Source of the DNA: Stegostoma tigrinum
Taxonomy: Eukaryota
Assembly: GCF_030684315.1 (NCBI RefSeq)
Contig: NC_081396.1
Span: 186,001-250,000, forward strand
DNA length: 64,000 nt
Direction of reading: 5' to 3'
Shown here: piece after piece, positions 11,768 through 63,859 of the stretch
How the letters are laid out: the number at the start of each line of letters is the position of its first letter
Position numbering within the stretch: position 1 is the stretch's first letter
Notes under the pieces: generated by a model
What the model was told of the DNA's origin: nothing
Seen by the model: the letters and a program-made list of their open reading frames with translations, nothing else
Database searches by the model: none
Program-made: the position numbers and the translations under genes

Positions 11768-12355
11768 TGGCACTGAGGAGCGGGCACTATCGGAAGGTCA
11801 GTGCTGAGGGAGCGGGCGCTGTCGGAGGGTCAGTGCTGAGGGAGCGGGCACTGTCGGAGGGTCAGCGCTGAGGGAGAGGGCACTGTCGGAGGGTGGCACT
11901 GAGGGAGTGGGCACTATCGGAGGGTCAGTGCTGAGGGAGTGGGCACTATCGGAGGGTCAGTGCTGAGGGAGCAGGCGCTGTCAGACGGTCAGTGCTGAGG
12001 GAGGGGGCACTGTCGGAGGGTCAGTGCTGAGGGAGTGGGCGCTGTCGGATGGTCAGTGCTGAGGGAGGGGGCACTGTCGGAGGGTCAGCGCTGAGGGAGC
12101 AGGCACTGTCGAAGGGTCAGTGCTGAGAGAGGGGGCACTGTCGGAGGGTCAGTGCTGAGGGAGTGGGTGCTGTCGGAGGGTCAGCGCTGATGGAGCGGGC
12201 ACTGTTGAAGGGTCAGTGCTGAGAGAGGGGGCACTGTTGGAGGGTCAGTGCTGAGGGAGGGGGCACTGTCGGAGGGTCAGCGCTGAGGGAGCGGGCGCTG
12301 TCGGAGGGTCAGCGCTGAAGGAGCGGGTGCTGTCGGAGGGTCAGTGCTGAGGGTG
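11768..12355 (+). repeat. 32-bp tandem minisatellite (CAGTGCTGAGGGAGCGGGCACTGTCGGAGGGT), about 18 copies
   Basis: Period of 32 seen directly (unit starts at 11801 and 11833). Resembles a widespread shark minisatellite family. Confidence 0.95.
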
Positions 12356-19457: not shown

Positions 19458-19689
19458 GCAACAAGAGATTGAACAAACTGGGCTCGGATTCCTCGAATTT
19501 CAAAGGTGCCCACTGGGTGGCAGTGTAACAACACCGGTGGGGGGCTGGTGATCAATGCACAGCACAGGAGGAGCCCACTGGGTTAGAATGGCCCGGGCAA
19601 GCAAATGAGAGCTCTGTCTGAGGCTGAAGCAGTGTCTTTGCAACCCTGGTATAACGTTTGACCCCAAGGTGAACTATCAAACACACAAA

Positions 19690-20725
19690 CTGGCAGGCGG
19701 TGACCAGTAGGGTACCAGAAGGTTCGGTGCTGGGACCGCAGTTGTTTACAATATACATTAATGATATAGACGAAGGCATTAAGAGTAATATTAGCAAATT
19801 TGCTGATGACACAAAGCTGGGTGGCAGTGTGAAATGTGAGGAGGATGTTATGAGAATACAGGGTGATTTGGACAGGCTAGGTGAGTGGACGGATGCATGG
19901 CAGATGCAGTTTAATGTGGATAAATATGTGGTTATCCACTTTGGTGGCAAGAACAGGAAGGCAGATTACTATCTCAATGGAGTCAAGTTAGGTAAAGGGG
20001 AAGTACAACGAGATCTAGGTGTTCTTGGACCTCAGTCAATGAAAGCAAGCATGCAGGTACAGCAGGCAGTGAAGAAAGCTAATGGCATGCTGGCCTTCAT
20101 AACAAGAAGAATTGAGTATAGGAGCAAAGAGGTCCTTCTGCAGCTGTACAGGGCCCTGGTGAGACTGCACCTGGAGTATTGTGTGCAGTTTTGGTCTCCC
20201 AATTTGAGGAAGGACATTCTTGCTATTGAGGGAGTGCAGGGTAGGTTCAGAAGGTCAATTCCCGGAATGGTGGGACTATCGTATGTCAACAGATTGGAGC
20301 GACTGGGCTTGTATACACTTGAGTTTCGAAGGATGAGAGGGGATCTGATTGAGACGTATAAGATTATTAAGCGATTTGACAATCTGGAGGCAGGAAGCAT
20401 GTTTCCGCTGATGGGTGAGTCCAGAACCAGAGGACACAGTATAAAAATAAGGGGTAGGCCATTTCGAACTGAGTTGAGGAAAAACTTCTTCACCCAGAGA
20501 GTGGTGGATACATGGAATGCTCTGCCCCAGAAGCCAGTGGAGGCCAACTCTCTGGATACTTTCAAGAAAGAGATGGAGAGAGCTCTTAAAGATAGTGGAA
20601 TCAAGGGTTATGGGGATAAGGCAGGAACAGGATACTGGTTGTGGATGATCAGCCACGATCATAATGAATGGTGGTGCTGGCACAAAGGGCCGAATGATCT
20701 ACTCCAGCACCTATTGTCTACTGTA
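19690..20725 (+). mobile_element. 5'-truncated CR1 LINE with an uninterrupted RT C-terminal ORF (19700-20731)
   Basis: 'VPEGSVLGPQLF...KFADDTKL...HLEYCVQFWSP...RGDLIETYK...FFTQRVV' with no stops over more than 300 codons. Confidence 0.95.
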
Positions 20726-21649
20726 AACTGAACCATCACTATTTCTACCTGATGCTGCCCTTTCTCAGCTCATCTGCAGCTGAATCCTTCATTCGTGAAT
20801 TTATAATCTCTTGTCGTGACGATTCAAATGCGCCCTCACCCAGCTTACACCTTCCATAAAGTTCATCACCCTGGCCGTGACAGTTTTTTGAGATATTAAC
20901 AGGAGAAACAGAGTAAATTGGAAGAAACTGGTTCCACCGGTTGGGAAACCTTGGACTGGAGTGTACAGTCTAAACGTTTCAGGAGTGTTAGCGGGAACAT
21001 TTTCTTCATGCAAAGGATCACTGAAATTTGAGACTCTCTTCCATGTGCAGCAGTGGTGCTTGATCAAATATTGATTTTAACCTGAGATTGAATATTTTTT
21101 GTAATTTAACATGTTAAGGGACATGGCAGAGGCAGGTATATAATGCTTATTCACAGAATGGACATGTTTCAATGTGGGAGGACAGTATGAGGTGGGAATT
21201 TTCACCTGAGTCTGCACTTGCTCACAGATTGTTAAATCTCTCACCTTGACCAGTACTAGTGGATTAATTGAAATGTTCCCTGCTTCTCACTGCTCACAAT
21301 CTAACTGTCCTGCTGAGTTTTTCCAGCATTTTCTGCTTTCACTCTTGACAGTTATTTCATTGTGACAACAGCCCTCAATCAGTGGGTGGGAGGCAGTGTA
21401 TCGATCCCAGACGGTCTTGGTGGTGAATGTCCAGCACACGGGGAGCTCACTGGGCCAAGGTCGCTTGGGTGTCAAAGTGAGCATTTTGTCTGAGGTTGAA
21501 TCAGTCTGTTCATAAATAGGATGTTGACCCCAGGGTGAGGTTTCAAACACACAATCCACACCATCACTAAGACCATCTCATTTCTGTATGAGGAACACTA
21601 TCTGAAGCTGCCCCATCAGCTCATCTGCTGCTGGACTTGTGATTCATGT

Positions 21650-29874: not shown

Positions 29875-30354
29875 NNNNNNNNNNNNNNNNNNNNNNNNNN
29901 NNNNNNNNNNNNNNNNNNNNNNNNNNNNNNNNNNNNNNNNNNNNNNNNNNNNNNNNNNNNNNNNNNNNNNNNNNNNNNNNNNNNNNNNNNNNNNNNNNNN
30001 NNNNNNNNNNNNNNNNNNNNNNNNNNNNNNNNNNNNNNNNNNNNNNNNNNNNNNNNNNNNNNNNNNNNNNNNNNNNNNNNNNNNNNNNNNNNNNNNNNNN
30101 NNNNNNNNNNNNNNNNNNNNNNNNNNNNNNCTATAGCCGAAGTCAAAAGCACCCTCACTTACACACAATGACACATCCAACAATGAGGAAAGTTAGTGGT
30201 GAGCTGCTCTTTATTGTTGGAGAACGAGAGGAGAAGCTGTTTGGGAGGGCTTTCTGTGGTGATACAAGCATTTAGTGATACAATAGCTGACGTGTCTGTG
30301 CGGCTAAGTGTCTGTGAGTGTGCGTTGGATTTGTCTGCGGGGTGGGGGAGGTGG

Positions 30355-45312: not shown

Positions 45313-45970
45313 GAGATATCTGCACACCAACTGGTGTCTTCTTTCTGTCGCCTGTTATCTCTCTCTCTCTCTCTGCCTCTATCTCTCTCTTTCTCTCATG
45401 GAGATGTCTGCACACCAACTGGTGTCTCTTTCTGTTGCTTGTTATCTTTCTCTCTCTCTCTCTCTCATGGAGATATCTGCACACCAACTGGTGTCTCTTT
45501 CTGTTGCTTGTTATCTTTCTCTCTCTCTGCCTCTCTCTCATGGAGATATCTGCACACTGACTGGTGTCTCTTTCAGTTGCCTGTTATCTTTCTCTCTCTC
45601 TGCCTCTCTCTCTCTCTTTCTCTCATGGAGATATCTGCACACCAACTGGTGTCTCTTTCTGTCGCTTTTATCTTTCTCTCTCTCTGCCTCTCTCTCTCTC
45701 TCATGGAGATATCTGCACACCAACTGGTGTCTCTTTCTGTCGCTTTTATCTTTCTCTCTCTCTGCCTCTCTCTCTCTCTCTCATGGAGATATCTGCACAC
45801 CAACTGGTGTCTCTTTCTGTCGCTTTTATCTTTCTCTCTCTCTGCCTCTCTCTCTCTCTCTCATGGAGATATCTGCACACCAACTGGTGTCTCTTTCTGT
45901 CGCTTGTTACCTTTCTCTCTCTCTGCCTCTCTCTCTCTCTGTCATGGAGATATCTGCACACTGACTGGAA
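45313..45970 (+). repeat. Tandem repeat, 9 units of about 70-88 bp: GAGATATCTGCACACCAACTGGTGTCTC plus a (CT)n spacer
   Basis: Unit starts at 45313, 45401, 45470, 45543, 45628, 45706, 45786, 45866 and 45947. Confidence 0.95.
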
Positions 45971-46067
45971 TCTCTCAGTTTCTTTGCTGTTCACAAGCAC
46001 TTTATTTTTGAAATAAAGAAACAGGACAAACTGTGGCAGAATCTTTAATCTGATTATTGCTGCTGAT

Positions 46068-46208
46068 CACCTGTTGCATAAATTTCTAACTGGCAGAAAA
46101 TAGAAATCTGTGCTGGAGGCGGGGACAGGAAACTCTGTTTCTGGTTTCAGTGGGTGGAGCTGCTGTTGAACTTGTGGGACCCTCGCTCACTTCACTCCCC
46201 TATTTAAA
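46068..46208 (+). promoter_or_regulatory. Putative IgW VH promoter: E-box CACCTG (46068), TTGCATAA (46074), GC box GGAGGCGGGG (46115), TATA-like TATTTAAA (46201)
   Basis: Motifs seen 90-230 bp upstream of the leader ATG. No canonical octamer is present. Function is inferred from position. Confidence 0.55.
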
Positions 46209-46294
46209 CAGCACTGACTCCAGCTCCAGATAAAGGCGTCCTGAAGCAGCTGGATTTCTGGAGTGTCTGACTCTGCCTCTGCTTCCACACAGCG

Positions 46295-46340
46295 ATGGGG
46301 ATTCTTCCTTATCTCTGCGTCCTCCTGCTCTGTCTGACAG
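46295..46340 (+). CDS. IgW: IgW VH leader exon (MGILPYLCVLLLCLT/G)
   Basis: ATG at 46295, hydrophobic signal peptide, phase-1 donor GTGAG at 46341, 120-bp intron ending TTATTCACAG at 46460. Confidence 0.93.
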
Positions 46341-46460
46341 GTGAGAGCTCCCGAGGCTTTCTCCCCACACAGTGAGGCTGCTTCTTCCCAGATTCTGTGA
46401 CTCTGTTTATCTGACTGGTTTATTAAAGTGAGCTCTCTTCTGTTTCTCTTTTATTCACAG

Positions 46461-46759
46461 GTGTCCGGTCTGGGATCATGCTGAACCAGCCCGAGTCAGT
46501 TGTGAAAAAGCTGGGGCAGCCTCACAAACTGATCTGTTCAGTGAGTGGGTTCAACCTGGATGACTACGTGATGCACTGGGTCAGACAGGTCCCCGGGAAA
46601 GGCCTGGAATGGTTACTCAATTACAAGCAGGGTGGCAGGAGTGAATATGCACCTGGAATTCAAGGCAGATTCGTCCCTTCAAAAGGGTCCATCAGAGTCG
46701 CCCACCTGGACATCAGCGAACTGAGAATGGACGACACTGCCATCTATTACTGTGCGAGA
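46461..46759 (+). CDS. IgW: IgW heavy-chain variable (VH) segment, germline and in frame
   Basis: GVRSGIMLNQPESVVKKLGQPHKLICSVSGF...MHWVRQVPGKGLEWLL...YAPGIQGRF...DDTAIYYCAR has the canonical Cys-Trp-Cys. 'QPESVVKK' and 'YAPGIQGRF' are IgW-like. Confidence 0.95.
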
Positions 46760-46798
46760 CACAGTGAGAGGATGTGAGGCTGGACTGGCACAAAATCT
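46760..46798 (+). other. VH 23-bp-spacer recombination signal sequence
   Basis: CACAGTG (46760-46766), 23 nt, ACAAAATCT (46790-46798). Confidence 0.95.
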
Positions 46799-47111
46799 CA
46801 CTGAGCGAATATCGTCAGGGGAATCAGTGAAAGGGAAGAAATGATCACGCAGCCCCAGCTATCAGCAAAGCTTCATTCCCTTCCTGGCTTTCCAGTGAAT
46901 AGGGAAATGTGATTATTCACAGAGGATTCCTGCCGCTGGCGACACGATGGGAAGAGGATGTCGGGACGTGAACAAAGATTTCTCTGGACTGAAACAGGAG
47001 AGGGCATCCCCGGGCAGGGAGGCTCAGAGCAGCATTGCTCACTTGGAGCAGTGTCAGTGCGATCAGTTTAAATGTGAAGTGACTGTATTTCGTGACAGGG
47101 AAAGTGGAGGA

Positions 47112-47193
47112 GATTCATGTAGAGCTCTCCATCGCGGTGTGTATACGGCTGGGTCACAGTGAGAGAAATGGGAACCCTCTCCATTCAAAAACC
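47112..47193 (+). other. IgW: D1 segment (coding 47140-47154, TGTATACGGCTGGGT) flanked by 5' 12-RSS and 3' 23-RSS
   Basis: 5' side: GATTCATGT (47112-47120), 12 nt, CGCGGTG (47133-47139). 3' side: CACAGTG (47155-47161), 23 nt, TCAAAAACC (47185-47193). Confidence 0.88.
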
Positions 47194-47533
47194 GAGCACA
47201 GGAAAACAATTAAAACTGCACTCACTGGGTGCTCTCACTGGCCTTCAGCTCCAGAGCAGTGGATATAAATCAGATTCCGATTCAATAACCTGGATGTGGG
47301 AAGAACTTGCCATGAAGCTATTACTTGAAAGATGAAAAGAGCAGTGATGAACAGAAGAACAATGATGAAAAAATAAAAGTTTTTGTGGATTTGTCTCATC
47401 TTCCTGCACAGTACTGAAAACCCCAGCATTGACTCCTGGTGTGTGGGAGACACACAGAAACAGAGCGGGGAGTTCATGAAGTAGCCAGCTGTTTGTCCGG
47501 GATGTTTGATTTCAGGCTGGATCCTACAGCTGT

Positions 47534-47602
47534 TGTTTCTGATCTTGGATGAAGCATTGTGATGGATACAGCACCACAGCAGCACAAAGCTTGACATAAA
47601 CA
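47534..47602 (+). other. IgW: D2 segment (coding 47562-47574, ATGGATACAGCAC) flanked by 12-RSS on both sides
   Basis: 5' side: TGTTTCTGA (47534-47542), 12 nt, CATTGTG (47555-47561). 3' side: CACAGCA (47575-47581), 12 nt, ACATAAACA (47594-47602). Confidence 0.85.
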
Positions 47603-47922
47603 GCCCCGTTCCTAATGACCATGTATATCCATGGATTTCCCATTCCTGTTTCCCAGAGTGAAATATCTAGACACTGGCTCAGATTGTCAGGGAAAATGTT
47701 GATTTCTGGGAGAATAAAAGGCAAAAAGGAGGCAATTCTGTTTCTGGGTAACCTGCAGGATCTGGTGTCAACAAACAGGAAAAATGTGAAAACATTACTG
47801 GATACATTTGGGACAGGATTAAGATGGAATTTCAAATGAAAATACAGGAAGTTGCTGCTCCAGGTTCCAACACAGTTTATATTTACATTCCCTGGGGATT
47901 ATTATATACGGTGCTCAGGGTC

Positions 47923-47961
47923 AGTTATTGTATTGGGTGAATAAAGAGACAGAGCACAGTG
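47923..47961 (-). other. JH 23-bp-spacer RSS
   Basis: AGTTATTGT (47923-47931), 23 nt, CACAGTG (47955-47961). Confidence 0.88.
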
Positions 47962-48004
47962 CTGGACTACTGGGGCAGCGGAACCTTTCTGGAAGTGACT
48001 TCAA
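47962..48004 (+). CDS. IgW: IgW JH segment (LDYWGSGTFLEVTS)
   Basis: WGxG motif; phase-1 donor GTAAG at 48005. Confidence 0.94.
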
Positions 48005-50609
48005 GTAAGACAACCTTCTCTATTCTACTCTTTTCTACTGTACATTGTATTTAATTTGTGTTTTTGATAATTCAGTAAAATCAGTGAGATATTTCAGACA
48101 GTTACATGATTCCATCCTAGAGTGGTGAATTTCTATTGAGTCAAGAATAAACCCAGTAACTGGAAGTGAAATCTGAGATGAGATTTCTTCTCAATTGTTC
48201 ATATTAAACCCCAGAAAATCCAGGATTCCAGGATCTGTTTGATATGTTCAGCTTGGTCCAGTTTACATTATTCAGGATACGTGTTGTATTGGGCAGGTTT
48301 GATGATTTTGGACTTTAGGATACTTGAAGGATTTTGTTATAATTGGAGTTAAAATATATGATTCAATTGTTTTGTGATTCAGTCATTGGTGTCATAGTTG
48401 TTTACATTTTCTGCGAATGTAGTTCATACCTTGTTGAACAGTTTTAAGAATAATAGGTTCCAGATTCTACTTGATAATTTTGCAAACAAACAGAAATGAT
48501 TTGGACAGAGTGAGACACAGGGATTACTTTATATTTAAAGTAACTCAGCCCAACATGTTTACAGCATATGTCCAGAGAATTCACTGGAAGACAGCAAGCT
48601 GGCTGTGTGTGGAATAAAGTTGAGTCTCATTGACATGCGTGTTTTCATATTAATTGTTCAATTATCTGTGAGATTTCAAGCCATCTCTCACTCTGAAATC
48701 TCATCTCTAACTGGACCCACATTGAAGGGTTGAGAACTGCAAGAGTTTCTGTTTGGTTGAAATCATTCTTGTGCAATAACCGCATGGGATCAATTTTTTT
48801 ATTTGTTGATATTAGATGTTTTGGTTCACTGTTTCTATATTTACAATTATTGGATTAAAGCATTCAACAAGGGTACTTCAGACTAATAAATGAACTGGTC
48901 GATGCATAAATCTCACCTTGAGTGGAAATCCGTAGGGCAGGAATATGATTTATTGTTACAGGGTCAGTGGAACAAGGTTTAATATTCAGCCAGCTCTGAC
49001 CACTGTGTTCTTTTAGTTGGTCTGATCCCTGAAATATAAGTTAGACATATTGGAAAGGAAGGGCACGATCCTTTCTCAGTGGCAGGGTTATGATCCATTT
49101 GATATCAATTGACATTTCACAAGCTTCTTGGATGGGATGGCGAGTTTTGTGAAGGAACCTGATTCTCTGATTATTCATGAGAACTATAATATTCTGCTGT
49201 GTGCTTTTTAAGATGAGTTTTCCACATTTATTTGAAATAGATTTGTTTTAATAACATCATTAACTAAATAAACAGGAAGGACAATGATGATTTCAACATG
49301 TCCTCCTGAGGACATGTTGACATTTTTTAGCTAAAAAGCTGATTTTTACAAGAAGCACACAGTAAACATTCATTGCACCTCCTCTATCTCCCTGGATTCA
49401 CTGGTTTAGAAATTCCTCCCAGGGAGTGAGACAAAACAGGCAGTTCTCCGACCTGCCACTCATCCTGCCCACTGCCTGAGCCGGAATTCCAGGGACTGAT
49501 CTGGAATTGAATGCTAGGCACAGTGTGGAACAGGCAGGCGATCACCTCAGGTTTCCTTCACCCACTGTGAACAGTTTCTTGGCTGCAGTGTTTGATTGTA
49601 ACATGGACTGTGTGGTGGGAACATCCCTGATCACAAACACTGAGTGAGCTCGGAGTCAATTTTACTGCAGTGTCACACCTCAGTCTGTGTGATTCCAATT
49701 CTCATTCTTCCTCACCAGGAAGACATAAAACACTGGACAAATATTTCTTGTAGTTGGGTGATTCTAGATGTGTTTCTGCAGTTGTTCTTGTTCAGCCTCT
49801 TGTCTGAATTTACTCACTGGGTGCACTCTCCTTCCTTTCTCATCTTTCCTTTTGTCTTCCACTATCTTTTCTTCGTTTTTTGTCAGTTCTTTCTTTTTTC
49901 TTGGTCTCTCCTTCTCTTCCCCTGATTTCAGTCATCAGACTTTATCTTTCAACTTTCTCACCCTCTGTGTCCCACAATTCCAGTCGACAGTCCCACCACC
50001 CATCAATGGGGTTAAAGCTGGAACATTTGGAAAGATGTTGAAAGGATCAGTTCAGTGTGAGGGGATGACGTCTGCAGAAGGATGTTGATATTGGACTGTA
50101 ATATACTGGATGAGGGCCATTACAGCGTACGGCGTGAGCTCCTGTTAACATTGAAAGACATTTCAAATCTCTCTACTTCAACTATTGAGGATCTAGAAGC
50201 TTGTAATTTGATTACATCAGTGATGGGAAAGGGTATTTAAAATTCTGAATGACATTGAGAAAGTGGCTGGAGGATACAAGGGAGGGAATTAAAAGCAGGA
50301 ATATTACTGACATAGTACAGTCCAGTCAGCCTGATGGCATGTCTGAGGAAATTTTGAGAGAGAATAATTCAGGGTAAAATTTATGGCAACATCATTTACC
50401 CAGGGCATTCTTGTGATCTGTTATATTCTGCCCGAATGGACAGAAGGATCAGATTCCATTGTAAAAATCAAAATGAAATAGTATTGATATTGAAAGGAAA
50501 ACATTTGACAGCCCTCTGGCAGAAACAGGGTGGTGAGATTGTGTGTTTAGTCTCACCAAAGAGTTACCATACACTGGTACTTGTCGCATGGACAGAGTGG
50601 GACCAGTGC

Positions 50610-51635
50610 ATGTAGCTTCTGGATTTTCAGAAGACATTTGAGAAGTTCCCACACTGGGGATAATAGATTAGATTTGGGGGAAATATACAAGTATGATTAG
50701 AGAATCGGTCACTGGGCAGAGGCAGGGAGTTGAATAAATGGATCATTCTCAGGATGGCTGTTACTACTGGGGTGATAAAAGGGTCAATGCTAGTTCCACA
50801 ACTGCTTGCAATCCATATAAATGATGTAGATGTGTGAACCAATGTGAATATCTGCATATTTTCTGATGACATCAAACTGGCTGGGAGCATGATTTGTGAG
50901 GCGGGTGCAAACAGACTTCAGTAAGATTTGGACTGGCTTTGTAAATAGGCTAGAACTGGGCTGATAGAAGAGAGGAGTCTGAAGTTATTCACTTTGATTA
51001 AAAAAAACAGGAGGTGTGATTTGGAGGTGCAAGTGTCCAAAGGGATCTGGATGCCCTTGTCCATGAGTCACTCAAACCTAGTGGTTGGGTATAGCTTAGA
51101 AAGGAAACAGTATGTTGGCATTAATTTCAAAGGGATTTGAGTATGACAGTAAAGATGTCTTGCTGCAGTTGTCTCTGGCCTTAGTAAGACCACGCCCGGA
51201 GCACTGTACACAGTTTTGGTCCCCTTATCCAAGAAAGATACGTTTGCCATGGGGGCAGTGCAAAGATTGTTTACCAGACTAATCCCTGGGATGGCAGGGT
51301 TGTCTCATGAAGAGGGATTGATGAAACTGGGTCTGTATCCTCTGGAGTTTTAAGCATGTGAGGTGATCTTAATGAACTTGCAAAATTCCTAGAGGCTGAC
51401 AGGGTGGATGTAAATAGGACAGTTCCCTTGGCTGGTGAATCTTGAACCGGGGACCAATAATATTAGGACCAGAGTCTGGTCATTTACAACTGAGATGAGG
51501 AGGAATTTCTCCTTTCTGAGGGGAGTAAATCTTGTGGAATTCTCTACCCATAGGGCTGTGGAAGTACAATCATTCATCAGGTTCAAGACAGAAATCAATG
51601 CAGTTCTGGAGACTGATGACATTAAGGGGTATGGA
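50610..51635 (+). mobile_element. Decayed CR1 RT/3' fragment in the J-C intron
   Basis: 'FSDDIKL' (FADD-like) near 50860 and 'EMRRNFSFLRGVNLVEF' near 51490. Confidence 0.8.
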
Positions 51636-52366
51636 GGTTGTTGCCTTGCTCACTGAGCTGGCTTGTTTTTGTTCAGCCGTTTCATCACCATTCGAAGTGA
51701 CATCAGACGTGGTGCCTCCGATGAAGCAATGTGATTCTGCTCTGCTTGGAATTTATACTGTTCAGTCCGTTATGGTGAGTAGTGTCATTTATGGTTTTGA
51801 TCTGTATGAGTTTGTATATGAGGACCATTTCGATATGTTTGTTGATTGAAGTATGGTTGGAGAATCATGCCTCCAGGAATTCCTGTGCATGTGTATGTTT
51901 GGCTTGGGCTACTATGGTTACCTTGTCCCAGTTAAACTGATGGCCTTCATTGCCTGAATGGATTAAGGAGAGTTTGTTGTGCCATTTTGCTGTTCATGAA
52001 AATCAGCTGGCAGTAAAATGGCACGTCTCCTTCATATCAATCCATTCAGACAATGAAGGCCATCAGTTTAACTGGGACAAGGTAACCATCAGAGCCCAAG
52101 CCAAACATAGACACATACGGGAATTCCTAGAGGCATCGTTCTCTACCCTTTCTTCAATCAACAAACATATCGAACTGGACCCATATGTAAGTCCACACAG
52201 ATGAAAACTGGAACTGACTGGGCTCACCATAACAAACCGGACAGTATAAATTCCAAGCGGAGTAGTATAACATCACTTTATCGGAGGCACCACGTCTGAT
52301 GTCACCTTGCATGGTGATGAAACAGCTGAACAAAAACAAGCCAGCTCAGCGAGCAAGGCCACAACC
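51636..52366. mobile_element. Penelope-like element 3' end (GIY-YIG C-terminus) present as an inverted pair
   Basis: ORF 51950 'HENQLAVKWH...SIHSDNEGHQFNWDKVTI..QAKHRHIREFLEA...SINKHIELDP'. 51636-51960 is the reverse complement of about 52030-52366. Confidence 0.85.
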
Positions 52367-52539
52367 TGGAGCTTCTTTAGCCGAAGAGTGGTGAGAATGT
52401 GAAATTGTTAAAGTACGGAATGGTTGAAGTGAAGAGTAGAGATGGATTTTACAGGTAAGCAAGACAAGCCCATGAGGGGGAAGGGAATGGATGATTATGA
52501 TGGGGTAGATGAGGATCCTTTTAACCCCTTCAATATCTG

Positions 52540-52880
52540 CTCCCTCCAGCACTGACCCTTTGTGTGCACTACCTAGACGATGCACTGCAATAAATCACGA
52601 AGGCACCTTCAACAGTCTCTTCCAAACCCACAACCACCACTATCTAGAAGGACAAGGGCTGTAAGTGCTTTGAAACCTCTCCATGTTCACGTTCCCCATC
52701 TCTACCTGGATCTATGTTGTTGGACATTTACCGTCACTGGCACGCGTGGGTGTCTGTACACTAAATGGTCAGTATGGGTTCAAGAAAATGTCTCACCATC
52801 ACTTCCTCCAAGGCAGTTAGGGATAAGTAATAAATACTGGCTCCGATAGTGAGTACTGAGCCCAGGAATAAATGGAATAA
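52540..52880 (+). mobile_element. LINE (CR1/L2 clade) 3' end
   Basis: 'MHCNKSRRHLQQSLPNPQPPLSRRTRA' and a tail similar to 44870-45310. Confidence 0.6.
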
Positions 52881-55341
52881 AAGGAGGCTTGAGCAGAGTA
52901 TGAACACGCATGGACTGATCAGCCAAAAGGACACATTCTATGCTGCATATTCTGTCTAGATACCAAAACATCTTTATTGTATTAGCCAATACTCTTTGTG
53001 ATATGCTTGAAGTAGTTGGAAAGTAAATAACTTGTATTTTCTAGCACGTTCCATGAATTTGGGATGTTGCGGTTTTGAGTATATCTGAAGTGCTGTCAGT
53101 TTTGTGAAGGCATTTTGTGCAAACCAGGACTCATGAATAATAAGATACTGACCGGGCAATGGCTTTTAATGATGTTGGCTGGAGATAAATACTGTATGGT
53201 ATACTCAGAAATCAATTTAATGTCTGATCTAAAAGCCCAGCCGCACCTGCCCCCAACAGTGTAGCTCTCTCTTAGTAATATCAACCTCGACGCTGTGCTC
53301 ACGAATCTGCTGAAACCCCCAACCTTCTGGTTTTGAAGTGAAACTGCAACCATTGAGGCACTGATGAGTGAACAGCCATTGTCTGTTGTACACCAGTGCC
53401 AAAACATTATACTGCTCAACTCTTCCAAAGGAAAGAACATCAATCTGCTTCATCTTACCCCGCACTTCACTTCTTAAAACTCTGAGCCATTCTGAATCTG
53501 TTGGACCTTGAGTTCTCATGGACCACAGTATCCTTTAGCTCTGTTGGACAATTCAGAATTACACACAGACATGAAATGAGGTTTCACCAATTACACACAG
53601 AGGGTGAACGTGGTCTTGGCTGCAGAACACATCAGGTTACATTGAATCACCCATGTGTTTCACAGCTGCCCAGATTTTCAATCCCATTGAGTACAGTAGG
53701 AAAGAGGCCAGGGTGGACTGTAACCTGGGCTGAGAATCACACTCACCAGAATCACTCCAGGCTAGGTTCACCCTGAATACCATTTCATAAATTCCAGCTC
53801 TCTAACGATATAGTGACACTCATCATTCTCCTCATTACTACTGTATTTCAGCACAATGCTGACATCCTCAGGAGTTTATCAAAGTTATCCCCAGATCCAT
53901 GCCCTGACCACCATTTCCCAACACTGCTTGAATTATGAATTCTGAATTATTATTGAATTATGAATTATACTTCTGGCCCACTGGCTCCAGGATGTGAAAG
54001 ACCGTCAACTGTAAATGATGTTGACTGATACGATCCTGTCACCTACACTGGAAAAGATCAGCTGCTCCATCAAAGTCAGTGCAGAGAGAAATAGAATTAA
54101 AACTTTGTCAAGTGCTCACACCCTGATTTCTGAGACGTACAGCTAATTGATTTAGTTTCACTGTTTTTTTCAAAATGCCTGAATTTATATCTTGCCTTTG
54201 GGAAAACTTTTGGCAGCTAATGAAATACATTTGAAGTGTCGTGATCAGTGGAATGTAGGGAACACAGTATCTAATATCTAGAAAAACAACAATAAGATCA
54301 TGAGATAATCAACCATGTTCAAACTGATTGAACCAGATGGTACATTGCCTTCACACCCGCACAATATTCCAGTCTACTCAAGTCTGTGGGATAAGTGTAT
54401 ACCTGCTGTTCCTTTGAATAATACAAGATTCCAGCCTGATAGATGGACTGTCTGCGTTGACCTCCATTTTGCAGTTGTCCAATATTTTGTCAAGGTAACT
54501 TCAACAATAATTTCTTTATTTACCTCCCCAGCCTGCACCAGCTCCCCCTTTCCACTGACAATCACCAACTATTCATTGGCTTTTACCAGTTGTTTGATTT
54601 CACACACACTCCCAAAGTCTTGCAGCATGGAAGCTCAGTCATTAACTCAAGACAGACATTCATAGATTTTGAGTCGCACTTGATGTCAAGGGACACTGAA
54701 ATAAGATGACAGATTTCCCTCTGCAAAGTACCTTAAGGGTTTGTATTAATCTGCCACTTTCTCCAGAGTGTGTGTTCTGGTGCCACTCCATGCAAATCAA
54801 CAGCCATAACCATTTCAATTCACCAGGGTAAGATTTGAACTCACAGCCTCTTGGACGATATATTTCTATGGGTCCTGATCCCTTTCTTGCTAGTATTCCC
54901 ATTTTTCTGCAGATTGGAAATGTCACTTGTTTATGTTCTATGGTATTTTAATATCTCAATTACTCTCACCTTGAAACAAGTCTTGCTCTTATCATAATTT
55001 TTGAGTCAAATTCTGCCATTTATATAAATTACCATTTGATCCTGTCAGTTTTATAATAAATTAATTTATTCATTACTTAATTTGTGCTCTCAGTTAATTT
55101 CTGATATGGAAGACGGTGGGACACTCCCTTAGTATGTGCTCAATTCTGAAATGAGTTTGAACCCATCACCTTCTGAATTTGACGTGAGAGTGAGACCCAA
55201 CTGAGTCACAGATGATATATACATGTGTAAACTCTGTGTCTGACAGTGTAATTGTTTTCAGAAACAGCTGCTTGTAGCTTTAACCCAAATTCTCCAATTT
55301 GCCATGAATTTATATATTGGTTTTGTCTATTTACGTTTCAG

Positions 55342-55662
55342 ATGCCCAGACCAAACCTTCAGTTTATGTTTCCAGTACTTCCTGTGACACAAGCTCCAAT
55401 CAAGATCAGATCAGCCTCCACTGTCTAGTCAAGGATTTCCAGCCCAGGAGCATCCAACAGACATGGTCCAGTGACAATAGAGAGATCACAACTGGATTCA
55501 ATAAGTATCCCACAGTCTTGGGGCAAAATACGAAGTACACGATGAGCAGTGTGCTCAGTGTCTCTGCGTCGGATTGGAATGCGGGCAAGGTCTACCACTG
55601 CAAGGCGGGCTACAAGGCAAATGAAATGGTGGAAGCTGAGACCACAAAGCCTCAGCCTCAAT
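55342..55662 (+). CDS. IgW: IgW constant exon C1
   Basis: Acceptor TTTCAG at 55341. AQTKPSVYVSSTSC...ISLHCLVKDFQP...TW...SVSASDWNAGKVYHC. Donor GTTAGT at 55663. The extra Cys in the A-B region fits light-chain pairing. Confidence 0.93.
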
Positions 55663-56871
55663 GTTAGTAAAGAGCTTACTTACCATTCTTAACTCTACAG
55701 GATTGGGGGATATGGTTAGAAAAGAATCTTCAGCAACAAGTGAGGGAGGTTTCTGCCCAAAACACCACAAATTAATTCTTGTCTCCAGATGCTGTATCCT
55801 TGCTTGTTGGCAGTCTGCCAGGAGCTAAATAACCATCATGAAATTGTGCAAAACAGGCTAAAGCAGGGCAACAACGTTGTTGCCTGTGATGCCACAATTC
55901 CAACATTTAGTTCTGCTGGAGTCAGTGCAACTGAAAATTGTGGCGGGAGGGGGTGGGCAGTGCGCTGCTGGGGGGTTGTTGAGGTTCACCACACAGGAAA
56001 GAAATGCCATAATCTCTGTACCGTTTCTGATTCAGCTCCAATAACAGAGGCCCCACCCCTCACCCTTTAGCACATCATCAATTTATAAGAGCTTACAGGA
56101 AAGGAGGCTATTTAACCCATCAGATGTGTGCCAGTATTATCAAAGATGCAAAATTGTTCCACTCCTCAGCCCTTTGTCCATGATCCTGCAAACATTTTGT
56201 ATTCTAAGCAAGAATCCAATTCTCTTTTGGAAAATATACTTGAATCTGTTTCACCAGCCTCTCAAAGGGAGTGCATTCCAGATTCAAACAAATTGCTGTG
56301 TTTGCAAAGAAAAACATCCTCACGCCTGTCTGGTTTTATTGTATCACTTATCAAGACTGAACTTCCTGCAAATGGAAACCATTAACCCAATCTTTTACTG
56401 GTTGCTTATCTACTTTGACACACACAGTCAAAATCAAGCAGTGTAGAAGCAAGACAGAGATTCATTGATTTCCAGATACTCTTGAACTGAAGGGACAGAG
56501 GATAATATGAATATGGCATTGAAGGAGCTGCTGAGCAATGGCATATGAACAAGGGGAGGCCAGTCAGCTCCTTGAAACTGCTCCATTTTATTAGATCATG
56601 GCTAATGTCCACCTCAACTTCCAGTGACCTGCCTTTGCTCCAGATCTCAGTAAAATGTGATGCTGCACTCTGCAATCCGTAGGAATGGTTCTTGCACTCC
56701 CTATCACAGCTCACTTGGACATGCAAGATCATTCTCATCAGGCTCATTATTCCCAGGCAAATCAAGGTCAATATGGAAGGCACTGGCATTGTGGTGATTT
56801 CTTTAGATGTTAGGGGAAATGTGTGCATCTTTTCTGTTCCATGTAATCTGAAATATTGCAACATTCCACAG

Positions 56872-57171
56872 CTCCCCATGTCTTCTCTGTTGTTCCATCT
56901 TGGGAGATGGTCTACAATCAAACCACTGCTGCCCTGGGGTGCATACTATCTGGATTCTATCCTGACATTGTCCAGGTTTCCTGGTTTAAAGCCGGAGTGC
57001 TCCAATCGGGTGCCAAACTCCTCTCCAAAAAGGCAAAAGGTGGTACATTTGAAACAGTCTCTTACCTGACTGTACAGGTGGCGGATTGGAAGAATGGGGA
57101 TGAATTCACTTGTGCAGTGTCCCATGAGCCGACAAGCTTCAATACCAGGATCAACATGAAGTATCGGGAGG
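56872..57171 (+). CDS. IgW: IgW constant exon C2
   Basis: Acceptor CCACAG at 56871. PHVFSVVPS...ALGCILSGFYPDIVQVSWFK...DWKNGDEFTCAVSH. Donor GTAAGT at 57172; phase 1-1. Confidence 0.94.
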
Positions 57172-57653
57172 GTAAGTAGACTCTGAGAGGGAGTAAGGAT
57201 ACCCTGTCAGAAATTCAATCTTCTAATAACCGAATGTGCGAGCACTTGCTCACAATTTTTGAATCACTGACATTGATTATAAGAACGGCGGTGGGGGGGG
57301 GGGACACTTAGTATTTTCTGTTTTGATATTAAAACCACATCTAACTGAACTATTGTAACGTAAAGCACTGAGGCTATTTAAACCCTCATTCAATTTTACT
57401 TGATGTGACTGCAATAGAAATGAAAATGGGGCGAGATGTCAAATGGTCTTCTGAAAACATTCACACTTCAAATCACCTTCGGTTTCCTCCCACTGCCATC
57501 CAAGTGCTGTTTTATTAAATAAATCTTTCGAATGCTGAATTTGAATGAATTACCATGATGTGCTTCAACCATCTCCCAAGGGAGCCAGTCCCTGACAGAA
57601 GCAGGAGAGCTAAAAATGTATAACATTTAAATTTGTATCTCTTCCAATTCCAG

Positions 57654-57802
57654 GTGGATGTACTCCTCACACTTGTCCTCCTCGCTCTTGTTCTGAGTCT
57701 CCGCCAGTCCTGCTCTACCATACTAACCTTAATGTGACCCTCAAAAATGGTGAAAAGCACCAATATAACTGTGCCAATCAAATGTGTAAAATAAAGTTGT
57801 GA
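57654..57802 (+). CDS. IgW: Secretory tailpiece exon of short-form IgW: [49 protein letters not shown]
   Basis: Pyrimidine tract and CAG at 57653, in frame (phase 1) with the C2 donor. 5 Cys and an NVT sequon. Resembles the Cys-rich tail of elasmobranch short IgW/IgX. AATAAA at 57790 and 58032. Confidence 0.88.
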
Positions 57803-59459
57803 ATTCATTGTGAATGGAACTGGCCATTGAATTTCATTACAAGTCTCTGACAGGTTGCACTTAGTGTTTCCTAGCCAATCGACTTATCTAAGTAGTCATT
57901 TCTTGGTGACCTGTACCGGGTTAGGTTGCAAGGTCCTGATCCCACGGTTTGACCCCCGCCTCTTGGCTCTGACTCAGGTTGACAAGAATTTGAAGACTAT
58001 TTGTCATCCAGAGGGACAGTCACCTTGATCCAATAAAATAGGAGCTTGGCCTCTTTCTTCAGTGATGTTGGTCCTGAGGCAAGTTTGTGATTCAGGACTT
58101 AAGGATTTACCTGGGGCCCTGTAGGATCTGGTAGGTTTTGGGTGTAAACACAGGTCAGGAAAATGAGAGACGATCCCTTCAATCCTGCATACTGACAACT
58201 GTCAATGAACTGTACTCAATATTGACAAGGACTTCAAATTGACAAAACTTTTCTATTTAACTTCTCTACGAAGGTGAATGGAATGAAATGTCCCTTATCC
58301 TGTGATTCCACCATTTTACAATGATAAGGGGAATACTTCTGATTCTGTGAGGTTTGATTGTCAGGGAGCAAACATTAAGAATTGGTCATTAATATAATGT
58401 TCATTACTAATCTTGGAGGAAAATGCTCAACATCTTGTCTGACAGGCAGGTGACAGAAATGGAACATATGAAGTTAATACCACATGTGTTCCTGTCACTA
58501 CTCTGAACATCAGCTCAAACTGCATTGGAAGATTTGGTACTTTGTGTTCATAAATGTTTTGATTAGGACACAGACATAGTAATCATTTCTCTTTTCAAGT
58601 ATTAACTCAATGTGATATAGACAGAGAGCAATCAGCGTGGATCAAAGCAGACACCATAGTTACGGTTTGCACAGTGAATGTGTTTGGACATTGACCATGT
58701 GCAGCGCACACAGGTCGCTGCAGAATATCTGAAGTAATGATAATTCTTTGAGAGACAAGTATAAAGAAGAACATGTGATCAAATCAATGCGTGATTACCC
58801 TCAAGTCTAATATTTCCTGAACAAATTTGGATTGTGTGAGGATCATGTTCTGTATAAATGATCTCCAACCTGCAACAAGAGAGGGCTTTTGTGACTTCCT
58901 GTGATACATGGGTTTGCTCTCCCAATGCAAAAATGAACCAACTTCCTTGGCAGGCAGGATTATGAATAACATCTTGCATTTATAGAGCTCTCAAATATGG
59001 CAAAAATAAATCCCAGATGGTGGAAAACCAGAGAGGAATTGGCACTTAGTCAAAAAATGCTGAATGTAGGATGTGACCAAAAACTTGGCCAATACGGGCC
59101 AAAATTGTGTCTTGAAGGGTAAGTAAGAAAGAGCGAGAATAGGTCACTGAAGGTTAGGGAATGAGTCCCAGAGATTAGGACCTGACCATCAATGTTCAAA
59201 TAAAGGGTTTATAGAATTTACAACAGACCTAAATTTTACAGAGTTTCCAGATTATTGTAGAGTTGAAGAAGATTACAGAGAGAGGGAAGGCCAAGGCAAT
59301 GGAATTTTAGGATTGGAATCATAAAACGAAGCTTTCAGTGCTGACTCCAATGAGAGCAAGAAAAGTAAAGAAAGATTTGCATTTATATCTCATTTCCATA
59401 ACGATAAGACATCCTAAAGTGCTTCACAGCCAATTAGGTATTTTAAAGTGTAGTCGCTC

Positions 59460-59810
59460 TTTATTCATTCACAGGATGAGGGTGTTACTGGCTAAGCAGC
59501 ATTTATTGCCAATTCCTAATTGCTCAGAGGGCAGTTCAGAATCAACCACATTGCTGTGGGTCTGGAATCACATGTAGGCCAGACCAGGTGAGGATGGAAG
59601 TTTCCTTCCCGAAAGGACATGAGTGAACCAGATGTTTGTTTCCAACAATTGAGAATGGATTCACAGTCAGCGCTTGACTTTATTGAATATTTATCAAATT
59701 CAAATTCCACCATCTGCCATGGTAGGATTCGAACCCAGGTACCCGGGACATTATCTGGGTCTCTGGATTAACAGTCCAGCAACAACACCACTCAGCCATC
59801 ATCTCCCTCT
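59460..59810 (-). mobile_element. SINE (SacSINE/Deu-like)
   Basis: Reverse complement has a tRNA-like B box (GGTTCGAATCC) and the same core as 34478 and 39250. Confidence 0.72.
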
Positions 59811-60667
59811 CTTGTAATGTAGGAAATGTTGCAGTCAACCCGCACAGAGTAAGTTTCCATTAAAAAAAATCTCAGAATAACTCAGTAATCTGCTGCTTGT
59901 GATTATGAGTGAGTGATAAAATTGTCTGGGAGATCAGCAATAGCTCTCCTGCTTTTCTTCAGAATAGTGTTCTGTCATCTGGTACTTCCACCTGAGACAG
60001 CACAAGGTGCGTCATTTTCATTTCTCAACCAAAGTGCCTTTGACAGTGCAGTACTCCCTCTGGACTGCCCTGAAATGCCAACTTTGAGTTTGCACTCAAG
60101 TGGATTATAAGCCAACAATGTGAACAATGAGAGGAGTCAGCAACTGTGTCATGGGTGAGAGAAATAGGTTTCTCATTGATTTGGTGTGTTCGATGTCAGG
60201 AATCAATCACACACAAGAAGAAGAATTTGTACAATTGTTCTTTTTGCTGGGCAGCTTGTATCTCTGTCTCACTCCATTTCGCAAATCAGAGATTGCATTT
60301 ATTAATATTGTTGTCTCCGAAATCTGCTCAGCCCACAATTGATTGCAGGGCTTGCAGTGAAGTTTTGATCTCAGACGTGGGAAACAGATTTAAGATGGAT
60401 CTGCCTCATTCTTAATGCACTGATTGTACATCCTTGGTCAAAATTTACAAATGAGGAACTGCAAAACATGTTTTAAATAAACCTTGGATTTTCTAATGGT
60501 CGAGTATCTGCTCCAGATGTTCTGGATTAAAAAAGAATCCAGTTCAAGTCCACTTTTGTTGCCATGTTTCTTTGCTTCAAAAATAGCAAAGCCTTCCCCA
60601 AACGTCTGAAACCTGCTGACACCAGAAAATATCAATTCTTCTGAAGTTTTTCCTTTCCCATTCCCAG

Positions 60668-60964
60668 AAGTGTCTGTCTTTCTCCGAAATCCTTCAATCA
60701 AAGAGCTTTGGATCAACAAGACTGCCACCCTGGTGTGTACAGCAGTGTGTTCTGATCCCAGCCAGGTACAGATCACCTGGAAGGTAAATCGGAGGCAGAG
60801 AAGCAAAGGGGTTACAGCTCAGAGAGAGGAAGGCGCCCAATACGTCATCATCAGCCAACTCCAAACCACAGCACAGGAGTGGGAGAGTGGGGTGGAGTTT
60901 GTGTGTTCTGCTCAAAGTGGTCCCTCCTCCTCATCAGTGTCAAAGTGGACAAGGAGCCTAAGAG
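60668..60964 (+). CDS. IgW: IgW constant exon C3
   Basis: Acceptor TTCCCAG at 60667. EVSVFLRNPSIKELWINKTATLVCTAVC...ITWKVN...EWESGVEFVCSA. Donor GTGAG at 60965. Confidence 0.93.
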
Positions 60965-61053
60965 GTGAGCAAGAGATCACAAATTACATACCTGACTTTG
61001 CCAAGCTCATAGTAAGAGGTTAACACCTTCTTTGTTTTTCCCATCTGTTCCAG

Positions 61054-61371
61054 TTCCACAAAAAAGTCCCGAGGTCAGATTGCTGCCTCCACCAGCCCAA
61101 GAGACCAAGAATCAGAGCAAAGTTACACTCGAGTGTGTGATCACTGGATTCTACCCAGACCTCATACAGGTCTCCTGGGAGAAGGACAGCAGCCTGATCT
61201 CCTCCAACACCCATGCTGGCCTCACTGCTCTGGAGCAGACAGGGACATTCAGTGTCAGGCACTACCTGACTGTGAACACAGAGGAGTGGAGGAAAGGTTC
61301 AGTCTTCACCTGTGCAGTGTCTCATCCACCGTCCAACTTTACCAGCAGGAAGGAGGTGAAGAATGTCCAAG
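61054..61371 (+). CDS. IgW: IgW constant exon C4
   Basis: 89-bp intron from C3. PEVRLLPP...VTLECVITGFYPDLIQVSWEKD...EWRKGSVFTCAVSHPPS. Donor GTAAGT at 61372. Confidence 0.94.
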
Positions 61372-61538
61372 GTAAGTCCTGGGCCTGGTGACAAGATTAA
61401 TGTCACTTATCCTCATAGAAACTCTTCTTACACCAGTTTGAAGAAGAGAAAGTTGTGGGCCTGAGTGGAACTCCACATTCCCTACCACAGGGCAATGGAG
61501 GTGAAGATATTTGTTACCAAAGTCAGGAGCTCTTCCAG

Positions 61539-61695
61539 TTTGAGACTGGAACAGAACCCTTCTTATTCCTGGTGGGAATGGTGGATACTCTTGTTCTCGC
61601 TGCATGGCAAGTTTCCTGTGTGAGGCTAACTTTGACATCACTTTCTCTGAAGGCAATATAAATGTGACCAACAAATAGAGTCCATTGATGGGTAG
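61539..61695 (+). pseudogene. Decayed second secretory tail exon (paralogue of 57654-57802)
   Basis: SCSRCMASFLCEANFDITFSEG aligns without gaps to [29 protein letters not shown] (compare QYNCANQ) follows in a shifted frame. The acceptor is damaged. Confidence 0.7.
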
Positions 61696-61854
61696 TTTGT
61701 GAACACAATCATGTTGATCTGATAAAAGGCTGTTCCATTGTAATGATGTTGGTCATCAATGTAATTGCTGAGAGAGAACACAAGAATTCTGCCATGTCCT
61801 GTGCAGCCCAGTAAACTTTGAGAACCTTTGATCATTGAAAGACAAACTATTCTA

Positions 61855-62565
61855 TTCAGATTAGAATTAGAGTTGGCTTTACTGTCATGTGCACTCAAAT
61901 GAGTGCAGTGAAAAGTTTGCAATGTTACTGCTTATGTCCATCTCAGCGACAGATAAAGGTACTTGAGTATTTGTTCCATAATTGAAAGAACAAAACATAA
62001 AATTCAGCACAGGAATACAGAAATTTTAAAAACAACTTGAATTACTCAAAAAGTCTGGCATAAGAATAAAAAGGTTTTTAAGAAGTGCTCAAATTACAGT
62101 CCTTTTCACCAAGTCTGCGCCTGCACCTCAACTCCAGAGTGCACCAGGTAAATCTCCAGATCACACAAGGCTTGAAAAATCCAAGCCTGGCTTCCAGTGT
62201 GCAAGGGCCTTGCCTCCCCGGTGCTGGCCTCCAGTCCAGGACCCGCCCTGGGACTCAACCCCCTGCACGAGCATCTGGTCTGGGACTCGCCTCCTGGCAA
62301 CAGCCTCCGGCCCAGGGCTTTCCTCCCATGTTGGCCTGGTCTCGCATTCGCTCCCACGCTGGCCTGCTCACAGACATACCTCCAGGATTCATCAGTGATG
62401 TCCTCTGGTCTGGGAGTCACCTCCTCCATTCTCTCAGGTAAGTTAAGACATTAAAAGTTTGGGAAGAAAAAAATGCTGCAGAAAAGGGAAGAAAGAAAGA
62501 AAAGAAAAGGATCTGGGGCAGGAGAGTAGCTCTGGCTGGAGTACCCGAATCTGATGCCATCTTCC
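61855..62565 (-). mobile_element. Probable interspersed repeat (non-autonomous, LINE-derived) in the C4-C5 intron
   Basis: GC-rich block with a minus-strand start AAGATGGCATC and a simple-repeat/AT-rich tail. No recognisable protein; family not identified. Confidence 0.4.
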
Positions 62566-63538
62566 TGATGTACCCATCATCCAGGTATTGGCCAAAGTCC
62601 ATGATAGTTCAAAACTCAGAAAATAGTTCCGAAATTTATTTTTGTTTTGAGGAGGAAATGAAAATGAACATTGTTCGCTCAGCAGCATCAGAATTTCACA
62701 ACAATGAGGAGCATTCTCCACCTCTCTGAGAGCTTACACGCTGAGAGATCACCATACATTCCAGATTGTTAGATGTCAACACTTGGTCATTTTCTCATCA
62801 CTAATGTGGATGTTGAATCCCGAGTCAAATTACTGACTGTACCCAGTGTTTATTAAACCACAGAATATGAAAGTCTTCAGAATGAACAATCTCAATTTGT
62901 CAATACATTTAGCATAGAATTGTTTTTTTATCATGCTTAAAAAGTGAGCAAGGGAGAGAAACCAAAGCTCTGTCAAGTGAATAAAAGCCACATTCTCATC
63001 AGACATCATGTGCAGAATATCATCTAAGAATGCAGTCAGGGGAAAAGACTCTCAAAGCTCATTAAGGATGTCATCCTGATGCAATAATAGTTATCCTTTA
63101 CAATGCATTCAAGAGTTACATTGCAATTTCCTACAGGGAGAAGAGTTGTGGCTTTTGGGTGCAATGTGCTTGAAAAGTGTTCAGAACATGTGCTGAACTG
63201 TGGGATAACAGAAATGACTGATGGTTTAGAAATCAGTAGCAATGGGGAAAATGTGTGATGAGTTTGGTGAACCATCCAATTTCTTCTCCCATGACTCAGA
63301 CATGCAAGTACAGAACAGGATGTACATGTTATGCTCAAACGACCCCCGAACTATAGCACAAGGGGGATTTTTGTCACTTTCAGGCACACAACAATGTTGA
63401 AGACTAATTACTGCCTTTGATAGAGCCCAGCAGGGTATCAGTTTTATGTGTAATGATGAGCATGAATTGTCAGCCATGCAAGTGACACTGACATCCCACT
63501 GGGGAGTTAGGGAGTAATAATTGTCATTGTCCTCCCAG

Positions 63539-63859
63539 ATGAATGTTTGGACACTGGAATCTTGGTCACCTTAAGCAAGCCTCCTTTTGAAGAGATCTGG
63601 AGGAACAAAACAGCAACCATTCTGTGTGAGATACTTCACCATGATTTACAGGGAGTCAGGGTAACCTGGAAAGTGGATGGAATCATGAGACAAGATGGAG
63701 TGAAGACCCAGGGTCCCAAGAAGAATGGACATGAAGAGATAATCTTCAGTAGACTGACGGTCCCTGCTGCAGAATGGGAGAGTGGCGTAGAGTACATGTG
63801 TTTGGTCGAGGATGAAAATTTGCCAACGCCAGAGAAGAGGTTCATTAGGAAAGCCCAAG
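63539..63859 (+). CDS. IgW: IgW constant exon C5
   Basis: Acceptor CCTCCCAG at 63538. DECLDTGILVTLSKPPFEEIWRNKTATILCEI...VTWKVDG...EWESGVEYMCLVED. Donor GTACGT at 63860. Confidence 0.94.

Follow-up and report, generated by a model that had tools for sequence, protein, structure and literature searches.

A germline IgW heavy-chain cluster of the zebra shark with intact visible exons

A 64-kb stretch of the Stegostoma tigrinum genome, called here the window, carries a group of immunoglobulin segments that the earlier note had described as a complete-looking, functional and rearranging IgW minilocus. This locus raises the question of which isotype it encodes, and whether it is a working cluster or one that has fallen silent. 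Segments were found on the + strand, between 46295 and 63859, in the order L-V-D1-D2-J-C1-C2-Sec-C3-C4-C5, with V, D and J separate and without germline joining. No other Ig domain was detected in the 46 kb upstream, a stretch with five N gaps (tblastn, E<=1). A Pfam scan of 7 of the 60 upstream ORFs gave a single match, to a reverse transcriptase.

The leader exon (46295..46340) consists of 15 codons plus 1 nt and shows no difference from that of the S. tigrinum chain XP_059497703.1 (P0023). It is followed by an open VH exon (46461..46759) with the canonical Cys/Trp/Cys residues and a V-set match at E 4.9e-12, by D1 (47140..47154), whose 15 nt contain no stop in any frame, and D2 (47562..47574, 13 nt), and by JH (47962..48004), which has the WGxG motif and a GT donor. 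After a J-C distance of 7.3 kb come C1 (55342..55662), C2 (56872..57171), the Cys-rich secretory exon Sec1 of a short, two-C form (57654..57802, with an AATAAA at 57790), C3 (60668..60964), C4 (61054..61371) and C5 (63539..63859), the latter ending at a GT donor. An AG acceptor precedes each of the seven spliced exons downstream of L (V, C1, C2, Sec1, C3, C4 and C5), and GT donors are present in 7 of 7 cases (L, J, C1 to C5), so that the junctions are GT-AG and in phase 1, as the earlier note had stated. Its claim that every segment is open was borne out by in silico joining: L-V is free of stops, J-C1-C2-C3-C4-C5 runs for 533 codons without a stop, and the sole stop of J-C1-C2-Sec1 is its end. 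Neither stop nor frameshift interrupts any of these exons (L, V, J, C1 to C5, Sec1). Reading through the C4 donor gives a 6-residue tail, then a stop. The extra N-terminal Cys of C1 likely forms the bond to the light chain. The window ends 141 bp past C5, and C6, tailpiece and membrane exons fall outside it; "complete-looking" thus holds for the short secreted form and not beyond.

Upstream of the leader, a scan with known promoter motifs gave candidate promoter elements at 46068..46208 on the + strand, namely an E-box at 46068, a C/EBP-like site at 46074 and a TATA-like site at 46201. The same scan found no octamer within 1 mismatch and no CRE upstream of the leader.

The segments are flanked by six recombination signals (RSSs) in the arrangement V23, 12-D1-23, 12-D2-12, 23-J, with spacers of exactly 23, 12, 23, 12, 12 and 23 nt. 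This is the pattern anticipated from the first reading of the sequence, and all six are compatible with the 12/23 rule. A D1 with a 23-spacer signal is typical of sharks. In order from V to J, the signals depart from consensus at 2, 5, 1, 4, 4 and 3 positions: V 3' (46760..46798, +, 0+2 mismatches), D1 5' (47112..47139, -, 2+3), D1 3' (47155..47193, +, 0+1), D2 5' (47534..47561, -, 1+3), D2 3' (47575..47602, +, 2+2) and J 5' (47923..47961, -, 1+2). Five sites with at most 4 mismatches lie in the 1.25-kb V-J stretch, against 13 in the other 54.4 kb of the window; shuffles contained 0.11 such sites on average and at most 2, and none of 500 reached 5. The V-D1, D1-D2 and D2-J spacings are 380, 407 and 387 bp, within the range of 380 to 410 bp noticed earlier, which places one V, two D and one J within about 2 kb, some 400 bp apart, as in IgH miniloci of cartilaginous fish. 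With its 5 mismatches, the D1 5' signal is poor, so that direct V-to-D2 joining may be favoured and D1 may be skipped in rearrangement. The signal is weaker than that of a relative, whose contigs have the consensus heptamer at this place; X4, a near-identical run, shows the window's bases there.

We then asked to which isotype the constant exons belong. Identity to P0023 was 86% for V and 98, 97, 96, 99 and 100% for C1 to C5, and identity to the nurse shark chain IgNARC (P0024), which is an IgW, was 59% for V and 86, 88, 89, 94 and 87% for C1 to C5. In a tree, every C domain of the window clustered with the same-numbered domain of two IgWs, and C2 was paired with C4 (98/96) and C3 with C5 (95/95); internal identities were 41% for C2/C4 and 42% for C3/C5. 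This pairing reads as the IgW duplication pattern, and together with orthologous C1 to C5 and a Cys-rich secretory exon after C2 it identifies the cluster as IgW. In a protein search, Sec1 matched nurse shark "IgW short" alone (AAT02198, E 6.6e-12; 1 of 1 candidate). C3, C4 and C5 matched the IgNAR constant-domain structures 4Q9B (E 3.9e-22), 4Q9C (E 5e-27) and 2MKL (E 3.8e-35), of C2, C3 and C4, respectively; the likeness of C3-C5 to these IgNAR domains had been noted before. PDB searches with C2 and C4 were dominated by multi-domain mammalian chains and did not discriminate the isotype. A Trp in C3 is private to the window, and 14 of the 99 V residues are not those of P0023.

That the cluster might instead be IgM or IgNAR is suggested by the matches of C3-C5 to IgNAR structures, and by the automatic name "mu heavy chain-like" carried by four homologues of 55-82% identity (P0018-P0021). 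The two whose domains were mapped, P0018 and P0020, have the IgW tail and 8 C domains arranged as in IgW, so that the name looks wrong. Each C domain is only 24-37% identical to three shark or chimaera IgM-type chains (P0048, P0045, P0044), against 86-94% to IgNARC, and the window has five or more C exons where IgM has four C-mu domains; its V is 49% identical to Triakis IgM. IgNAR has three D segments (PMC4279169), a V that is not of the VH type, no CH1 and no light chain, whereas the cluster has two D, a conventional VH and a C1 (on the IgNAR side, the sequence comparison covered the three constant-domain structures). On the per-domain identities and the domain tree we rejected both isotypes, which are now extremely improbable, and retained IgW as the earlier note had proposed. 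The IgNAR matches agree with a reported homology of the last four IgNAR C domains with IgW C3-C6 (PMC4279169).

The organisation is that of known shark miniloci. In nurse shark IgH miniloci, segments lie about 400 bp apart and the J-C distance is 6.3-6.8 kb (PMC2435157); spacing and J-C distance thus match the cartilaginous-fish cluster organisation that had been recognised here. Shark IgM miniloci, in the same paper, share the VH-D1-D2-JH spacing of about 400 bp, the long J-C intron and rearrangement within the cluster, but differ by their four C domains and by the lack of an interspersed Sec exon. The nurse shark IgW miniloci compared (IgNARC, AAT02198, AGY29600/29605/29606) likewise have V, D and J in a single cluster and number 6-8 C exons; common to both species are the two-C secreted form with a Cys-rich tail, the splice joints and the high C-domain identity. 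Unlike them, the window has no second C3-C4 pair and no intact Cys-rich exon after C4, its V is from another family (58-61% identity to the retrieved nurse shark V regions) and its D1 5' RSS is weaker. Since no further C3-C4 pair separates C4 from C5, a six-domain cluster is likely. P0023, auto-named "gamma-1 heavy chain-like", has a six-domain layout with C6 and tailpiece, and would be a paralogue or allele of the window cluster.

Transcript data came from contigs of three probable RNA runs (X1, X2, X3) of a relative, mostly 90-95% alike to the window; the listing covered 15 of the 439 joints and 12 of the 78 inserts. Among the matches listed, V-to-J joins with non-germline inserts were present in X1 and X3, and a V-to-D2 join, with V joined at 47561, in X2. 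Among the joints listed, J-C1 and C2-C3 were found in all three runs, C4-C5 in X1 and X2, C3-C4 in X2, and L-V and C2-Sec in X3 (one run of three each); no direct C1-C2 joint was among these 15, one loose end being consistent with it. None of these joins and joints was seen among the matches listed for X4. Of what the RNA check proposed at the outset was to show, VDJ joins and most predicted splices were seen in the probable RNA contigs of the relative; the runs listed included no RNA from the window's own species.

Taken together, these data make it quite probable that this is a germline, unrearranged carpet-shark IgW heavy-chain cluster in which all exons in view are intact. It likely recombines its own segments, and alternative splicing of its transcripts likely produces both a short and a long secreted IgW. 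From V(D)J biology and the contigs of the relative, RAG would join V23 to 12-D1, D1-23 to 12-D2 and D2-12 to 23-J, or V directly to D2, bypassing D1, a route possibly preferred. The VDJ exon would be spliced onto C1-C2, and then either to Sec1, giving a two-C form with a Cys-rich tail wholly encoded in the window, or to C3-C4-C5 and on to C6 with tailpiece and membrane exons, predicted beyond it. The description "functional, rearranging" is therefore likely from intact frames, signals and the transcripts of a relative, rather than those of this locus. C6, tailpiece and TM exons could be defective, and an intact-looking cluster that is silent or broken downstream, a recent pseudogene, would also account for the 5 mismatches of the D1 5' RSS, the 4 of each D2 signal, a decayed Sec copy after C4 and a V further from P0023 than the C domains are (86% versus 96-100%). 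We consider this unlikely: the L, V, J, C and Sec1 exons have kept their frames and canonical Cys and Trp, and the V-D2-J route needs only the signals with 2, 4, 4 and 3 mismatches.

The decayed Sec copy expected after C4 was located, with moderate support, at about 61545..61690 on the + strand; another candidate, at 63300, was rejected, having no similarity to Sec1 (frameshift-aware scores 23-29). The copy has a deletion of about 10 nt with a frameshift, has lost its poly(A) signal, and is preceded by a competing AG that leads to a stop. Its local DNA score of 71.5 was borderline: one shuffle in each of two sets, of 200 and of 300, reached it, as did 2 of 44 control stretches, and its exon-only global DNA score was reached by 7 of 300 shuffles. 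Judged by these lesions, the stretch is likely dead, so that no four-C form ending in a full Cys-rich tail would be predicted. The alternatives, a divergent secretory exon still in use or a resemblance due to chance, are together rather unlikely. In favour of the former, the frame that begins after the AG at 61543-44 stays open for 44 codons, which include 3 Cys and an N-x-T site, and 61285-61676 is matched by a contig of the relative with 42 differences in 392; but the better AG upstream gives an immediate stop, two C-terminal Cys are lost through the frame shift and the next AATAAA is only at 62065. As to chance, besides the control stretches that beat the DNA score, the tails of window Sec1 and P0038 scored no better than controls (reached by 42 and 55 of 100 shuffles), whereas the P0028 tail scored 54, a value that none of 100 shuffles and none of 44 other stretches attained, P0031 scored 42 (2 of 100 shuffles, 1 of 44 stretches) and an exact 7-residue match lies at 61654, in the expected position.

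The C3 of both four-C cDNAs shows 100% identity with the first of the C3 domains in an eight-C chain. Tentatively, and with more doubt than confidence, the dead copy may be a fossil of the ancient duplication of C2-Sec-C3 into C4-Sec-C5 that built IgW and IgNAR, the Cys-rich tail then being older than that duplication. The nurse shark four-C tail would be a younger copy brought by the Sec-C3-C4 repeat of eight-domain clusters, six-domain clusters would lack a four-C Cys-rich antibody, and D1 skipping would be favoured here.

Zhang, Du Pasquier and Hsu reportedly described in 2013 eight nurse shark IgW (omega) miniloci with this organisation, and the figures or supplements of Zhang 2013 and Rumfelt 2004 (BMC Immunol) may already display the relic exon and the RSS sequences. 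A search for zebra shark IgW gave only passing mentions, which suggests that its cluster may be undescribed in the literature. From sequence comparison, it is an ordinary shark IgW locus of an organisation already known from nurse shark, as described in reviews (PMC4279169). The question of IgW function, taken up in that review, is made no more testable by this locus than by nurse shark loci. What the locus does supply is a correct germline IgW annotation in a species group represented in the database by an entry auto-named "gamma-1-like", and the evolution of isoforms and of the repertoire can be tested, in a small way, on its Sec relic and weak D1 signal.

All segments claimed in the earlier note were located on the plus strand, with open exons and splice joints that are GT-AG and phase 1 throughout: L, the leader (46295-46340), V (46461-46759), D1 (47140-47154), D2 (47562-47574), J (47962-48004), C1 (55342-55662), C2 (56872-57171), the Cys-rich secretory exon Sec1 (57654-57802, AATAAA at 57790), C3 (60668-60964), C4 (61054-61371) and C5 (63539-63859). 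Pfam recognised a V-set domain in V and a C1-set domain in each C exon, and none in Sec1 or in the frame at 63302. Joined in silico, L-V gives an open frame, J-C1-C2-C3-C4-C5 runs over 533 codons without a stop, and the sole stop of J-C1-C2-Sec1 is its end. Whereas three nurse shark chains carry a repeated C3-C4 pair, no C exon was found by tblastn between C4 and C5, and the cluster therefore looks like the six-domain type.

The 12/23 pattern and the segment spacing of about 380-410 bp held on measurement. Six recombination signals have exact spacers of 23, 12, 23, 12, 12 and 23, with 2, 5, 1, 4, 4 and 3 mismatches, respectively, to the consensus. At a threshold of 4 mismatches or fewer, 5 sites fall in the 1.25-kb V-J stretch versus 13 in 54.4 kb elsewhere, and 0 of 500 shuffles attained 5 sites. 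Successive segments from V to J are 380, 407 and 387 bp apart, and J lies 7,337 bp from C1; both the spacing and the J-C1 distance are close to those of nurse shark IgH miniloci in PMC2435157. According to established V(D)J biology, RAG would join the four segments inside the cluster, and the 12/23 pattern would also permit joining of V directly to D2. In the window the heptamer 5′ of D1 departs from the consensus at two bases, as it does in the near-identical run X4 of organism B; it is consensus in 3 of 3 runs of organism A, a relative, so D1 usage may be lowered in this locus.

No run registered as RNA contained the stretch. Four of the seven listed runs were compared: X4, and three from organism A that are probably RNA (7% of words). 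Organism A contigs were mostly 90-95% alike to the window, and nurse shark peptides matched at the joints. Among the joints displayed (15 of 439), these contigs contained the splices L-V, J-C1, C2-C3, C2-Sec, C3-C4 and C4-C5, as well as V-to-J joins with non-germline inserts and V-to-D2 joins; X4 had none of these splice or V(D)J joints among those displayed. The exon model is thus validated by the organism A joints, and clusters homologous to the locus rearrange, the evidence coming from organism A and not from the locus itself. Of the proposal that the cluster is functional and rearranging, this much stands; activity of the locus itself we infer, and it is quite probably functional. After rearrangement, RNA processing would yield either a form with two C domains and the Cys-rich tail, or a long form that continues by way of C3-C5 into C6 and membrane exons expected beyond the window.

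That the locus is IgW, not IgM or IgNAR, as had been claimed, is practically certain. A protein search with C4 retained 37 proteins from 176 candidates, and every species-named one was from a cartilaginous fish; the closest was Stegostoma tigrinum XP_059497703.1 (99%), of which the locus may be a paralogue or an allele, followed by nurse shark IgW/IgNARC (92-94%). Domain-by-domain comparison with 16 of the 49 collected proteins gave, for XP_059497703.1, 96-100% identity in C domains and 86% in V, and for the nurse shark IgW chain IgNARC 86-94% in C domains, versus 24-37% for three IgM-type chains. A tree built from 21 domains, for which the tool warned of long branches among IgM rows, places each window C domain with the same-numbered IgW domain, C2 pairing with C4 and C3 with C5. 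The match of Sec1 was nurse shark "IgW short". The likeness of C3-C5 to IgNAR was also recovered: they matched the IgNAR structures 4Q9B, 4Q9C and 2MKL, respectively. Such matches are expected from the IgW/IgNAR constant-domain homology described in PMC4279169. Four homologues are automatically named "mu-like", and in both of those that were mapped (two) the C domains number eight and follow the IgW order.

The relic secretory exon proposed after C4 (psiSec) was found at ~61545-61690 on the plus strand, 173 bp past C4, by frameshifted alignment to the tail of P0028, a nurse shark IgW chain secreted with four C domains (score 54; 0 of 100 shuffles, 0 of 44 control stretches). The tail of P0031 scored 42 (2 of 100 shuffles, 1 of 44 control stretches), C2-type tails (P0038 and window Sec1) did not score above controls, and support at the DNA level is borderline. 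The original nurse shark IgW locus paper reportedly describes two interspersed secretory exons. In the alignment ~10 nt are deleted and the AATAAA is lost. An acceptor AG six bases upstream leads to a stop at once; from the AG at 61543-44, 44 codons are open, so that the stretch may instead be a live, divergent secretory exon. One organism A contig runs on unspliced past C4 as far as 61676, with 89% identity, which means that organism A has the diverged stretch too. Just past the conserved motif of the relic, at 61676, alignment ends for one organism A and one organism B contig, and the sequence past this base may vary between clusters or alleles. If the C4 donor is read through (61372-61391), a 6-residue tail results; the nurse shark chain AAT02200 ends in 7 matching residues with a final Cys, whose codon is a stop in the window. 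C3 of both nurse shark four-domain secreted chains is 100% identical to the first C3 of an eight-domain cluster. This suggests that these chains gained their working tail together with the C3-C4 repeat and that the psiSec relic is older; against it, psiSec is closer to the four-domain tails than to Sec1.

The J-C1 intron contains a 733-bp palindrome (51635-52367; arms of ~357 bp, 83% complementary, 18-nt loop), whose very high contig depth in X4 marks it as a repeat that is common in the genome and is probably a mobile element of hairpin type. A LINE reverse-transcriptase remnant precedes it (~50500-51620, recognised by eye only), and another lies at 19673-20731 (RVT_1, E 7e-09 at 19673). Two perfect intronic octamers occur, at 59375 and at 54790, the latter a candidate enhancer 550 bp before C1. 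A tandem repeat of 70-80-bp units with CT tracts (45358-45975), with a CAACTG/CTGGTG core in every unit, ends ~320 bp 5′ of the start codon. Farther upstream are a 30-bp satellite of ~8 kb (1-8128) that is rich in purines, shows extreme GC skew and contains four N gaps, a minisatellite of 18 copies of a 32-bp unit (11773-12353) and a 256 N assembly gap (29875-30130).

In the reviews PMC5192425, PMC4279169 and bioRxiv 2022.06.22.497154, eight IgW loci are described for the nurse shark, comprising V, D, J and six to eight C exons; splicing produces secreted forms of 2, 4, 6 or 8 domains, and the short form has a Cys-rich tail. Gene models of bamboo shark, catshark and manta (P0001-P0015; 4 mapped) contain three to six C3-C4-type repeats, more than the six to eight C domains so far published; these could be genuine expansions or artefacts of the models. 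According to PMC12227049, four other species have IgH clusters close to TCR alpha/delta; no TCR element was seen in the 64-kb window. The locus is a known organisation, correctly read, in one more shark.
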